Shown here piece after piece: positions 4,931 through 16,856 of a stretch of DNA of 38,841 nucleotides. The stretch's first letter is position 1; each line of letters begins with the position of its first letter. Both the position numbers and the translations under genes were made by a program. Source of the stretch: a virus (Duplodnaviria > Heunggongvirae > Uroviricota > Caudoviricetes); IMG/VR virus record IMGVR_UViG_2541047816_000002, one strand, 5' to 3'. The notes beneath the pieces were generated by a model, which searched no databases, was not told where the DNA came from, and saw nothing but the letters and a program-made list of their open reading frames with translations.

Positions 4931-5099
4931 GATGGCAGCCTCCGCGATGAATTTGATTAACTCACCACCGAGGTTTTCCACGACCATAAGGGTGGTGAGA
5001 CGTACAGGGGTGGAAATACCGGTCATCACGGAACCCGGCCAGCCTTGCGGCTGCCCTGCACGCCCCACCATAATGCGAATGTGGCTGTGCTTAACGCAT

Positions 5100-5122
5100 A
5101 AAAAAACCGCCTGAGCGCGGTT
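5100..5122 (-). terminator. Rho-independent terminator for leftward transcription
   Basis: Minus-strand hairpin AACCGC-loop-GCGGTT followed by a T7 run (an A run on the plus strand). Confidence 0.6.
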
Positions 5123-5799
5123 ATGCGCCGTGAATGATTTCGGGTTTCCACGCCCGGCACCCGTTTTATGAGGTGCAGGTGCACTATAATTCCACCCGTT
5201 CTGGTTTTCAATAGCTACATTCAACATTTTCTCTCACCTTTTCAGCGGAGTGAACTTTGTGATGCAGTGCCTGGTGCCTCCAGGTGACGTTAACCAGTTA
5301 ACAATTAACGCCGGATACAGAGAATCCACCCATAACACTGTTTTTGGTTTTAACTGTTCCGCGTGCGCTGAGCCGCATTCACCGCATCACAAAATTCACT
5401 TTAAAAAGGGCGGCAGAGCAGTCACGGAGTAAAACTGATACCGCCAAACGTCACCAGAAAATTGATAACAGAGGGCGTTGCAGCGGGGTTGTCACTTAAG
5501 CGTATGGTCAACCTGACAACCCGGTGTCCTCAACGGGGGAAGGAATAACCCCGCCATACTTACCGCCGCGCCATTTCGCGGATTGCCACAACCGGAAGCG
5601 CACGGTCGACGAAAATTTAACGACAGGCTATCTATGAACCAGCTACCTCGCCGTGCGCTTTCGCGTTATGGTCTGACTTTTCAGGGAAATATCCTTTCAG
5701 TAAACTGTCAGTGCCGGATTCTTATCCGTGTCCGGCGCACGACCACACGCTGTCACGAGAGGTCTCCATTCTCAACCAGTAACCTCAATGGAGGATAAA

Positions 5800-11772: not shown

Positions 11773-12009
11773 TTTTATGGATCACCTTTCTGATTGATTT
11801 CATATTGGCGAGGTGACGTGAGTTAAGTAGAATGGCTGCGGGTGCTTGAGGCTATCTGTCTCAGGCATGAACACTGAAAGGCAGATAGAGAAAAGCCCCA
11901 GTTAACATTTCGCGTCCTGCAAGACGCTTAACATTAATCTGAGGCCCAATCTATGTCTCACAAATGTAGGTTAGCCTCTTACGTGCCGAAAGGCAAGGGG
12001 AAGCAGGCT

Positions 12010-12165
12010 ATGAAGCAGCAAAAGGCGATGTTAATCGCCCTGATCGTCATCTGTTTAACCGTCATAGTGACGGCACTGGTAACGAGGAAAGACCTCTGCG
12101 AGGTACGAATCCGAACCGGCCAGACGGAGGTCGCTGTCTTCACAGCTTACGAACCTGAGGAGTAA
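12010..12165 (+). CDS. hok: Hok/Gef-family type I toxin (small membrane peptide)
   Basis: MKQQKAMLIALIVICLTVIVTALVTRKDLCEVRIRTGQTEVAVFTAYEPEE matches recalled HokD/RelF; intrinsic terminator follows. Confidence 0.85.
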   Translation: MKQQKAMLIALIVICLTVIVTALVTRKDLCEVRIRTGQTEVAVFTAYEPEE

Positions 12166-14035: not shown

Positions 14036-14416
14036 ATGACTGAACGCATAGAATTTGTTTTGCCTTACCCGCCAACGGTGAACACTTACTGGCGACGCCG
14101 TGGCAGCACATATTTTGTATCAAAAGCCGGGGAGCGTTATCGCCGGGCAGTGGCGCTTATTGTTCGCCAGCAGCGGCTGAAATTAAGCCTGTCCGGAAGG
14201 TTGGCAATAAAAATTATTGCAGAACCACCGGATAAGCGCCGCCGTGACCCGGACAATATTCTGAAAGCGCCGCTGGATGCGCTGACGCATGCGGGGTTGC
14301 TAATGGACGATGAGCAGTTTGATGAAATCAATATCGTTCGTGGTCAGCCAGTATCTGGTGGACGTCTGGGGGTGAAGATTTACCCCATAATGCTTGAAGG
14401 GCAGGTCAAAAAATGA
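14036..14416 (+). CDS. rusA: Holliday junction resolvase RusA
   Basis: 126 aa; ...DPDNILKAPLDALTHAGLLMDDEQ... matches RusA catalytic region (recalled E. coli RusA). Confidence 0.88.
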   Translation: MTERIEFVLPYPPTVNTYWRRRGSTYFVSKAGERYRRAVALIVRQQRLKLSLSGRLAIKIIAEPPDKRRRDPDNILKAPLDALTHAGLLMDDEQFDEINIVRGQPVSGGRLGVKIYPIMLEGQVKK

Positions 14417-15234
14417 AACTGGAAGATTTACCGAAATACTACTCCCCAAAATCCCCCGGCCTGACCGATGCGTCCGCCTCGACATCAAAAGATGCGCTGA
14501 GTATCACTGATGTGATGGCCGCGCAGGGCATGACACAAAATCGGGCTGAGATGGGTTTTTCTGCGTTCCTTGGGAAAATGGGCATTAGTATGAATGACAG
14601 AGAGCGGGCAACAGAATTGCTGACAGAATATGCACTCAGTCGGTGTGATCGCGTGGCGGCGTTAAGAAAACTCCCGGCAGAAATAAAACCGGTAGTGATG
14701 CGCATTATGGCTTCGTACGCTTTTGAGGATTATGCCCGCAGCGCAGCGAGTAAAAAGCAGTGCCCTTGTTGCTATGGGGAAAAATTTATTGAAAGCGTAG
14801 TTTTTACAAACAAGGTCCAGTATCCGGATGGTAAGCCGCCGGTATGGGCAAAGTGTACGAAAGGTGTGTATCCGTCTTACTGGGAAGAATGGAAAAAAGT
14901 CAGGGAGGTGGTAAAAGTTGCCTGTCCGGAGTGTGGCGGAAAGGGTGAGGTTTCCACCGCCTGTAAGGATTGCCGTGGGCGTGGTGTCGCCATTCATCGT
15001 GAAGAGTCGGTAAAACGTGGTATGCCTGTTATCAGAGACTGCCAGCGTTGTGGTGGTCGTGGCTGTGAAAGACTACCATCAACGGAGGCATTTAATGCCA
15101 TACGCAAAGTGACGAGTGCTATCACGCTTGATACGTGGAAAAAATCAGTGAAACGCTTTTACGATACGTTGGTGGTTCGGTTTGACATTGAAGAGGCATG
15201 GGCGGAGCGGCAGTTAAAGAGGGTAACGCGATAG
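14413..15234 (+). CDS. Late antiterminator Q (zinc-finger type)
   Basis: 273 aa; three CxxCxGxG repeats (CPECGGKG, CKDCRGRG, CQRCGGRG); lies immediately upstream of a lambda-like pR'/qut. Confidence 0.7.
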   Translation: MKLEDLPKYYSPKSPGLTDASASTSKDALSITDVMAAQGMTQNRAEMGFSAFLGKMGISMNDRERATELLTEYALSRCDRVAALRKLPAEIKPVVMRIMASYAFEDYARSAASKKQCPCCYGEKFIESVVFTNKVQYPDGKPPVWAKCTKGVYPSYWEEWKKVREVVKVACPECGGKGEVSTACKDCRGRGVAIHREESVKRGMPVIRDCQRCGGRGCERLPSTEAFNAIRKVTSAITLDTWKKSVKRFYDTLVVRFDIEEAWAERQLKRVTR

Positions 15235-15239
15235 TGTTG

Positions 15240-15300
15240 TTGATTTTTCCCGAATCTGTGGTAAATTTGCTCTAACGATGGGCGTTTTATGCCTGACGTT
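15240..15300 (+). promoter_or_regulatory. Late promoter pR' with qut-like element (-35 TTGATT 15240-15245, -10 TAAATT 15262-15267, pause-inducing AACGAT downstream)
   Basis: TAAATTTGCTCTAACGATGGG closely matches recalled lambda pR' TAAATTTGACTCAACGATGGG. Confidence 0.65.
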
Positions 15301-15316
15301 AGAAGATTTTTTACAC

Positions 15317-15338
15317 CCCGCCGCCTGGCGGGTTTTTT
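15317..15338 (+). terminator. tR'-like intrinsic terminator ~45-60 nt downstream of the pR' start
   Basis: cccgcc-gcct-ggcggg hairpin followed by T6. Confidence 0.65.
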
Positions 15339-15460
15339 ATGACTGAAATCGCGTCAGTACAGTAAACGCGCTGGTGGCGGTGAATACCTGTCTTTCAGCT
15401 TGCTGGCTTTTTCGACAAGAGTTATTGGTGTGTCACGTTAACCGGAAAAGGGAAAAAGAC

Positions 15461-15658
15461 ATGCTAAAACAGCAGGATATGACAGAAACCGCCAGAGTAG
15501 TGTTTAATGAATTAAGAGTTACCGAACCGGCGACAGTCGGGGAGATAGCGCAGAATACTTACCTTTCACGCGAACGCTGCCAGTTAATACTGACCCAGCT
15601 GGTTATGGCGGGTCTGGCAGACTATCAGTTCGGTTGTTACAGACGCCTTCCGCAGTGA
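15461..15658 (+). CDS. Hypothetical small protein (65 aa, possibly winged-helix)
   Basis: ATG at 15461 after A/G-rich RBS; stop codon lies inside a terminator hairpin. Confidence 0.45.
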   Translation: MLKQQDMTETARVVFNELRVTEPATVGEIAQNTYLSRERCQLILTQLVMAGLADYQFGCYRRLPQ

Positions 15659-15668
15659 AGGCTTTTTT
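15645..15668 (+). terminator. Rho-independent terminator
   Basis: gccttc-cgcagt-gaaggc hairpin followed by T6. Confidence 0.55.
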
Positions 15669-15808
15669 ATTTGTGGTAAATGGGCGGCTGGTGGGTGTTA
15701 GGGGCACCCACCAGCCATCTGCTCATGCGTTGGGTTCACAAGCAAACCTCAGGCCCACTGCTTTGCGCAAAAGCAGAATGAGCCTATCAGAGACAGGCTT
15801 AATGATCC

Positions 15809-16856
15809 ATGCTTAATACTGTAAAAATATCCAGTTGTGAGTTAATCAACGCCGACTGCCTGGAATTTATCCGGTCGTTACCCGAAAATTCTGTTGACCT
15901 GATAGTCACGGACCCGCCGTACTTTAAAGTGAAGCCTGAGGGCTGGGATAACCAGTGGAAGGGCGACGATGATTACCTGAAGTGGCTGGACCAGTGTCTG
16001 GCGCAGTTCTGGCGGGTGCTGAAACCTGCCGGAAGTCTTTACCTGTTCTGTGGTCATCGCCTGGCATCTGATATCGAAATCATGATGCGTGAACGCTTCA
16101 GTGTGCTGAACCATATTATCTGGGCGAAGCCGTCCGGACGCTGGAACGGATGCAACAAGGAAAGCCTGCGGGCGTATTTCCCCGCCACAGAGCGCATTCT
16201 GTTCGCGGAACATTATCAGGGGCCGTATCGTCCGAAAGATGCCGGGTATGCGGTGAAGGGCAGTGCACTGAAACAGCATGTGATGGCCCCGCTGATTTCT
16301 TACTTTCGTGATGCGCGCGGCCCTGGGGATAACGGCAAAACAGATTGCAGATGCCACAGGAAAGAAAAACATGGTGTCGCACTGGTTCAGTGCCAGTCAG
16401 TGGCAGCTACCGAACGAAAGCGATTATCTGAAATTACAGTCGCTGTTTGCCCGGGTGGCAGAAGAGAAACATCAGCGCGGTGAACTGGAAAAGCCCCACC
16501 ACCAGCTGGTGGATACGTATACGTCACTGAACCGGCAGTATGTGGAGCTGCAGAGTGAATATAAGCATCTGCGGCGGTATTTTGGTGTGACGGCGCAGGT
16601 GCCGTACACGGATGTGTGGACACATAAACCGGTGCAGTTCTATCCCGGGAAACATCCGTGCGAAAAACCGGCAGAAATGCTGCAGCAGATAATCAGCGCA
16701 AGTAGCCGTCCTGGTGATCTGGTTGCGGATTTTTTCATGGGGTCGGGTTCAACGGTAAAAGCGGCGATGGCACTGGGGCGTCGTGCGATTGGTGTTGAGC
16801 TGGAGACCGGACGTTTTGAGCAGACAGTCAGGGAAGTTCAGGATTTAATCGTTTGA
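15809..16856 (+). pseudogene. DNA methyltransferase (beta-class N6A/N4C, DPPY motif), frameshifted
   Basis: Two overlapping ORFs in different frames: 15809-16483 carries motif IV DLIVTDPPYF, 16308-16856 carries motif I FFMGSGST; frame switch near 16300-16330. Confidence 0.6.

Follow-up and report, generated by a model that had tools for sequence, protein, structure and literature searches.

Does the short stretch of DNA behind the Q antiterminator gene of a lambdoid prophage hold a late promoter whose transcripts, as long as Q is missing, end almost as soon as they begin, and what RNA would then be released? This question is raised by positions 15240-15340 of the virus record IMGVR_UViG_2541047816_000002 (Caudoviricetes), a stretch of 38,841 nucleotides (nt) that was analysed as a whole and is called the window here. 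Coordinates are those of the window, and features lie on its plus strand unless a minus is given. An initial annotation, made from the letters alone, had read the site as a promoter resembling pR' of phage lambda with a pause-inducing element and a very close terminator. Our results indicate that the element is very probably a Q-lambda-type late regulatory cassette of a lambdoid Escherichia coli prophage, with a leader RNA of about 65 nt. The cassette is real, and it is an ordinary case of a well-understood kind of element.

The gene directly upstream (14413-15234) codes for a Q antiterminator of 273 amino acids (aa). This protein belongs to the Q-lambda family, since it matches Pfam PF03589 with an E-value of 8.5e-51 and the lambda Q chain of PDB entry 7ubm_Q with an E-value of 3.4e-39 (phmmer). 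Because the upstream gene is a homologue of lambda Q, a pR' and pause element of the lambda type are its expected partners, and the stop codon of the gene lies only 5 nt upstream of the -35 hexamer described below. Residues 1-113 of the window Q align with residues 1-113 of lambda Q, and residues 182-273 with residues 116-207. Compared with lambda Q, the protein carries a 66-aa insert (residues 115-180, encoded at 14755-14952) with CxxC and CxxCxGKG motifs, which makes a DnaJ-like total of four motifs. The same insert is found in K-12 YdfT (QuuQ) and in other Q proteins of 250-276 aa. According to the lambda Q structures (PMC9388147), the DNA-binding body meets the zinc-ribbon arm at residue 113/114. 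Hence, an insert at this junction enlarges the arm of Q, and judging from its motifs it probably adds a second zinc site.

The promoter itself can be read directly from the letters. The -35 hexamer TTGATT (15240-15245) aligns with TTGACT of lambda, a column where relatives show TTTACT or TTGCAT. It is followed by a 16-nt spacer, TTTCCCGAATCTGTGG (15246-15261), and by the -10 hexamer TAAATT (15262-15267), which is identical to that of lambda pR'. The spacer ends in TGG, so that T15259 and G15260 precede the -10 hexamer as an extended -10 motif, a feature that the initial annotation did not mention. After the -10 hexamer come TGCTCT and then the predicted start, A15274. From this base runs the sigma-70-dependent pause element AACGAT (+1 to +6), followed by GGG (+7 to +9); this block (15274-15282) is identical to positions +1 to +9 of lambda. 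In the lambda genome (NC_001416), pR' reads TTGACT-17-TAAATT-TGACTC-AACGATGGG. When both phages are compared over GGTAAATTTG....AACGATGGG, lambda (GGTAAATTTGACTCAACGATGGG) and the window (GGTAAATTTGCTCTAACGATGGG) agree at 19 of 23 bases, and all four mismatches fall between the -10 hexamer and the start. The pause element matches lambda both in sequence and in its distance from the -10 hexamer, and by analogy a pause is expected near +16/+17 (15289-15290). We also searched the window with a composite pattern, TTGACT-N16-TAAATT-N6-AACGATGGG, derived from lambda with the spacer set to 16 nt. It has one match in the window, with a single mismatch, against 0.01 matches expected from shuffled sequences, which argues that the promoter and pause element are a real observation and not a chance one. 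The positions first assigned to the -35, the -10 and AACGAT, as well as their close resemblance to lambda pR', are thereby borne out.

An intrinsic terminator, tR', follows at 15317-15338. The terminator scan returned a stem of CCCGCC and GGCGGG closing a GCCT loop (stem and loop 15317-15332) and a tract of six T (15333-15338); the hairpin has six GC pairs, a predicted free energy of -11.9 kcal/mol, and is separated from the GGG of the pause block by 34 nt. With A15274 as +1, the terminator extends from +44, where the stem starts, to +65, the last base of the U-tract, in agreement with the earlier statement that a terminator lies some 45-60 nt downstream, and the predicted terminated leader RNA measures about 65 nt. 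The elements of a Q-lambda-type cassette identified here are an upstream Q gene, a pause element and an intrinsic terminator. As in lambda, the intrinsic terminator stands before the late genes, and a constitutive short RNA is therefore expected when Q is missing.

To learn how far this arrangement is conserved, we scanned for Q proteins in one genome per species and obtained 41 loci from about 20 enterobacterial genera, with Q identities from 38% to 97%; the DNA after each Q stop codon was parsed and then aligned. The block AACGATGGG is exact at 32 of these 41 loci, while four keep eight of its nine bases, two keep seven and one keeps six. Thus, 38 loci retain at least seven bases, and two lack the element. 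Wherever it occurs, it stands 6-7 nt downstream of a -10-like hexamer. Moreover, an intrinsic terminator follows the promoter and pause element at 39 of the 41 loci, with predicted RNAs of 53-72 nt. These terminators are of at least four unrelated types (CCCGCC..GGCGGG; AGCCCTGCGG..CCGTGGGGCT; CCTCGC..GCGGGG; CCCGCT..AGCGGG). Such swapping of non-homologous terminators while the distance stays fixed strongly supports selection for a close terminator.

In lambda, the Q-binding element (QBE) sits between the -35 and the -10. The corresponding spacer of the window is predicted to be the QBE on the basis of its conservation within Q clades. Where Q is 53-97% identical to the window Q, the spacer is the best-conserved block and reads TTTTCC[CG]GAATCTGTG. 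It becomes TTCAAAAAANNTGG in the clade of about 40% Q identity that includes K-12 Qin, and takes other sequences in L048 and in lambda. A spacer that switches with the Q clade is what would be expected of a QBE; the pattern fits this assignment and is no proof of it.

Experimental support for such a leader comes from a homologue in E. coli K-12. Behind ydfT (quuQ) of the Qin prophage, the DNA reads TTGCAT-17-TAAAAT-TTTTTC-AACGATGGG, with the end of a terminator about 62-67 nt further on. In Shinhara et al. (2011, PMC3175480), ECS025 is a small RNA (sRNA) candidate of K-12 with the label 'IGR, Prophage (Qin/Kim)'. Its sequence, AACGAUGGGCUUUGUAUACCCGACGUUAAGAAAAAGUAGAAAACCCGCUGAUGAGCGGGU, begins AACGAUGGGCUUUGUAUACCCGACGUU and ends GCGGGU, with 60 nt covered by mapped reads. 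A Northern band of about 65 nt is reported there in total and low-molecular-weight RNA, present under all the conditions shown and raised 2-3-fold by cold shock. As listed in that source, the 5' end of ECS025 falls exactly on AACGAUGGG, the +1 predicted from lambda. In addition, Term-seq data of Adams et al. (2021, PMC7815308) place a 3' end, classed as 'orphan' and given in three listings, at 1642356(-), immediately past the U-tract of this terminator. ECS025 has thus been seen as an RNA, and the predicted product exists for a homologue. The initial expectation of a short leader terminated without Q draws its support from this RNA with its Term-seq 3' end and from the terminators of 39 of the 41 relatives.

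The window leader and ECS025 are identical at 49 of 69 aligned positions. Both directly follow a long gene of the Q-lambda family, begin with AACGAUGGGC, share the layout of hairpin, linker and terminator, and measure about 65 nt. However, the K-12 Q is only about 40% identical to the window Q, and ECS025 differs in its promoter spacer, in its linker and in part of its terminator. In the sections of PMC3175480 and PMC7815308 consulted, ECS025 is not tied to a late promoter. It is unannotated in the RefSeq record of K-12 and has no Rfam match, isrK alone being reached at 16.6 bits (gathering score 50). We found no relevant literature on ydfT, quuQ or sigma-dependent pausing in prophages, and no coordinates matching the start of the K-12 homologue in the Cappable-seq supplements. 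We group the leaders of the 41 loci and two phages as ECS025-type, a grouping of our own that comprises RNAs of about 55-70 nt that start with AACGAUGGG, form an AACG/CGUU hairpin, end in a terminator and come after a Q-lambda-family gene for 250-276 aa; the window leader fits it.

Folded from +1 (65-67 nt), the leader has a predicted free energy of -21.9 kcal/mol (z -2.45) and three parts. In both the minimum-free-energy and the centroid structure of 15274-15340, a 5'-terminal hairpin spans +1 to +27 (15274-15300), with an AACG/CGUU closing stem and a GGGCGU/AUGCCU inner stem. Next comes an A/U-rich linker of 16 nt, AGAAGAUUUUUUACAC (15301-15316), which is unpaired in the fold, and then the terminator. 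Nearly all relatives are predicted to fold in this way. Among 21 aligned sequences, 91.9% of the cells of the 5' hairpin are paired, vs 27-39% when the partners are slid, and a single double change, from G-C to A-U, is present. Since DNA-level functions keep the 5' strand invariant, the shuffle control is uninformative here. The 5' hairpin is best described as a conserved pairing potential whose structure is unproven. Stem-loops at the 5' end of E. coli mRNAs form the general basis for supposing a role in protection from decay. Since the predicted hairpin leaves no unpaired 5' nucleotide, it would most likely protect the leader and the late mRNA from decay that depends on the 5' end.

Taken together, these elements suggest the following course of events. 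RNA polymerase with sigma-70 would start at A15274 from a weak promoter of the -35/extended -10 kind (TTGATT-16-TGgTAAATT). Sigma region 2 would then re-bind the -10-like AACGAT (+1 to +6) on the non-template strand and hold the polymerase at about +16/+17. Without Q, the polymerase would escape, make the 27-nt 5' hairpin and the 16-nt linker, and terminate at 15317-15338, releasing the leader of about 65 nt. The 273-aa Q, when made, would bind the spacer at 15246-15261 and load onto the paused complex. Polymerase modified by Q would pass the terminators at 15317-15338 and 15645-15668, and its read-through would reach a small open reading frame (ORF), a methylase, tRNAs, STnc100 RNAs, an esterase and the lysis and packaging genes.

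This arrangement is close to that of lambda in its Q family, in the -10 TAAATT and in AACGATGGG, which stands in the same register. The comparison of the leader with lambda 6S RNA, made in the initial annotation, holds for the kind of RNA, a short terminated leader; homology in sequence is limited to about +1 to +25. These 25 nt or so take in the AACG(A)...(U)CGUU pairing. An AACGA/UCGUU stem can be drawn within the first 23 nt of the lambda RNA, but the fold of the whole 194 nt predicts another 5' stem. With about 65 nt against 194 nt, the window leader is not a full-length 6S homologue. The window further differs from lambda by its 16-nt spacer, the TGn extended -10, a weaker -35, an unrelated presumed QBE, the 66-aa insert in Q and a second terminator about 330 nt further on. 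Short RNAs from late promoters are known for lambda, 21, phi80, 82 and P22 (PMC7547250), and since several phages make them, this kind of element belongs to textbook knowledge.

The second comparison drawn at the outset, with StxS of Shiga toxin (Stx) phages, is sound as a functional one. StxS, an RNA of Stx1 and Stx2a phages, comes from a constitutive late promoter, ends at tR' in lysogeny and lies upstream of tRNAs and late genes, as is expected of the window leader. Its 258 nt are shortened to 74 nt by RNase E, and it binds Hfq and targets rpoS and stx1B (Sy et al., 2020, PMC7547250). It goes with a Q of 144 aa, from a different Q family, and is absent from Stx phages with a lambda-like Q of 207 aa (PMC7547250). 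The window, in contrast, has a 273-aa Q of the lambda family and a leader of about 65 nt, and apart from terminator-like 11-mers nothing in the PR'-tR' region of E. coli O157:H7 Sakai Sp5 resembles that leader. Thus, the two are not homologous. The late leader of Sp5, of the 933W type, itself contains a terminator-like hairpin, ACCCGC-CGATGC-GCGGG with seven T (L052, 1071-1101; about 1266370-1266400 in NC_002695.2). Measured from the start that follows from Sy et al., it occupies about +26 to +56, with the conversion of coordinates between records being an estimate. Its position is homologous to the first terminator of the modules of the phiP27/EH2201 type. In Sakai Sp3, an intrinsic terminator (L051, 2563-2590) lies about 50-75 nt after the stop codon of a 229-aa Q that has no BLASTP similarity to the window Q and belongs to an unrelated family. 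Because Sp3 also has such a close terminator, very short late leaders appear to be common and not peculiar to the lambda Q family.

IsrK of Salmonella Gifsy-1 (RF01394; PMC4825925) offers a further parallel, as it is a short terminated phage RNA of similar two-hairpin size whose read-through form is an mRNA. It differs from the window leader in locus and sequence, and the window has a separate isrK copy at 5100-5176(-). According to Rfam, C4 antisense RNA, isrK and DicF are clustered on the minus strand (4988-5459), and sok occurs with hokD on the plus strand (11840-12015); together they make up an early-region RNA set like that of Qin and Gifsy. Two other candidates were set aside. HnrS (EcOnc10-12), a 66-nt multicopy prophage sRNA of Sakai Sp9/10/12, has the same size and a different locus: EcOnc10 is flanked by the DNase/terminase genes and Rz, runs against the direction of the late genes and has no Q gene in its vicinity. 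This distinction rests on location, with coordinates taken from an older Sakai record. PasD/STnc100, found near PF03589 Q genes, corresponds to the STnc100 modules at 17232-17909 and not to the leader; a 2026 preprint relates STnc100 to PasD sRNAs.

The cassette is widespread in E. coli: many chromosomes, among them those of 55989, O104:H4, NCTC86 and ABU 83972, match the 331 bp surrounding the site at 100% identity, and at least 80% of the segment is present in 1417 of 5426 complete E. coli genomes. The annotation of 55989 offers only 'antitermination protein' and 'hypothetical protein' for this region and no RNA feature. Among isolated phages, the whole segment was found only in Stx2_EH1910, at 90.6% identity, where Q and the leader lie upstream of the methylase, tRNAs and stx2AB. 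Phage Evi has the half with Q, promoter and leader, placed upstream of tRNAs. Another 21 records, including phiP27 and many Stx2a phages, match only from 15317 onward. From this position (15317-15830), the window shares 85-95% identity with phiP27 and many Stx2a phages, in which the Q/pR' cassette is a different one, and upstream of it the matches are limited to Evi and Stx2_EH1910. Since sequence sharing breaks at 15317, the first terminator is a mosaic junction. Downstream of it, the module formed by the terminator, a 65-aa ORF, the second terminator, a conserved spacer and the methylase joins several different Q cassettes.

A leader that is so widespread may do more than end early. It could be a regulatory RNA itself, acting in trans on host mRNAs, as StxS does, or on the read-through late transcript, as IsrK does; both of these are phage leaders under antitermination control that gained functions (PMC7547250, PMC4825925). 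The K-12 homologue is a discrete constitutive RNA that responds to cold shock. Moreover, the linker before the leader terminator offers 16 unpaired A/U-rich nucleotides, and the leader module occurs in at least 1417 of the 5426 complete E. coli genomes. Against these observations stands the linker itself, which is kept only among close relatives (EH1910, Evi, L008) and is absent or different elsewhere, being nearly lost in the Enterobacter and Kluyvera versions. No complementarity of the linker to targets within the window rose above that of shuffled seeds. The leader matched no Rfam family, either at the gathering threshold or at E-values up to 10, and the RNAs that PMC3175480 reports at lower levels in an hfq mutant do not include ECS025. 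Furthermore, the parts that are conserved, AACGATGGG and the terminator, are accounted for by DNA-level and termination functions. We consider a regulatory role of the RNA of about 65 nt unlikely. The broader proposal is equally doubtful in our view, namely that the leaders of this size, which about a quarter of the complete E. coli genomes and many other Enterobacteriaceae carry and which ECS025 represents in K-12, form a widespread family of constitutive, apparently Hfq-independent RNAs with a function of their own. If it were true, that function would be trans action on the late transcript or on host mRNAs, or a tuning of Q loading, and the 5' hairpin that sequesters the RNA of the pause element would serve it and not just RNA stability.

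Several findings weigh against the cassette being an active late promoter with a terminated leader. A generic sigma-70 promoter scan called nothing between 14000 and 17000; it misses the site because the two hexamers score only 8/12. The spacer measures 16 nt vs 17 nt in lambda, and it is unlike the lambda spacer, so the Q-binding site can only be inferred. The transcript evidence belongs to the K-12 homologue, the window allele being read as sequence alone, and the K-12 promoter is the better of the two (TTGCAT-17-TAAAAT). We found no table of transcription start sites that covers ECS025 and could confirm a triphosphate at its 5' end. Covariation of the 5' hairpin is not significant, as the shuffle control was not exceeded among the 21 sequences. 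Finally, the 258-nt StxS precursor evidently runs through the close hairpin of Sakai Sp5, which indicates that a close terminator-like hairpin need not terminate fully.

Should the promoter-like sequence be an inactive relic, no leader would be made, and the hairpin at 15317-15338 would mainly end the early transcript that carries Q. The score of the promoter below the scan threshold agrees with this, and ydfT transcripts are a conceivable source of the Term-seq 3' end in K-12. However, the -10, AACGATGGG and their spacing are kept across genera while flanks and terminators diverge, and the intact phages Evi and Stx2_EH1910 have the same block. In addition, ECS025 begins exactly at AACGAU, is about 65 nt long and is not a 3' fragment of a Q mRNA. 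A relic is thus very improbable. A short leader peptide translated from the AUG within AACGAUGGG (15278) deserves hardly any credence, as the nearly invariant AUG at +5 and its 22-codon frame in the window must be set against the pause element that accounts for the ATG, the missing Shine-Dalgarno sequence, a frame of 2-80 codons in relatives with nothing conserved beyond MG(F/I/V/Y), and a window frame that crosses the terminator and would leave the terminated RNA without a stop codon.

The late region that Q-modified polymerase would enter agrees with the gene list first proposed for it, which named the methyltransferase, tRNAs, sRNA-like modules, nanS-p and lysis genes. All of these are present, and the list has to be extended by a 65-aa ORF and a second terminator and amended by a frameshift in the methylase. 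The 65-aa ORF (15461-15658) lies between the two terminators. In phiP27, the homologue carries the annotation of a TrmB-family regulator; the ORF itself has no Pfam match and no promoter of its own in the scan, and it is highly conserved in late regions of the Stx type. The second intrinsic terminator, found by the terminator scan at 15645-15668 (GCCTTC-CGCAGT-GAAGGC and six T), keeps its stem in other phages, with a changed loop. It stands before the methylase, so that Q-modified polymerase must pass two terminators.

Between the second terminator and the methylase, about 150 nt (15669-15808) are nearly invariant across phages with different Q types. This spacer is more conserved than the neighbouring ORF and contains a long hairpin (15680-15726); the fold of 15640-15812 has a predicted free energy of -71 kcal/mol (z -4.15). 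Kosakonia L045 has the GGCGGCTGGTGGGTG motif of this spacer immediately behind its leader terminator. The spacer has no Rfam match, with P26 reaching 24 bits (gathering score 36). A frameshift, caused by a 2-bp deletion after 16312, divides the N6/N4 DNA methylase gene into overlapping ORFs at 15809-16483 and 16308-16856; in E. coli 55989, the gene used for comparison is intact and codes for 349 aa. The split gene is followed by tRNA-Met(cat), tRNA-Arg(tcg) and tRNA-Arg(tct) (16906-17155) and by two tandem STnc100-family RNAs (17232-17422 and 17700-17909; 136 and 161 bits). The further late genes, all on the plus strand, code for a NanS-p-like esterase, holin, lysozyme, Rz and Nu1. The order and orientation of this late region fit read-through under Q.

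Our reading leaves the current picture of Q antitermination unchanged. Within it, the site marks a switch for late transcription, which would govern lysis genes here and, in its relative Stx2_EH1910, Shiga toxin. Within the lambda Q family, the long-Q branch would combine the pause element known from lambda with a leader that is much shorter. In addition, the orphan RNA ECS025 and an 'orphan' Term-seq end of K-12 can be linked to premature termination at the late promoter of a cryptic prophage. For the function of such leaders, lambda 6S RNA included, the common 65-nt version of E. coli may serve as a convenient test case.

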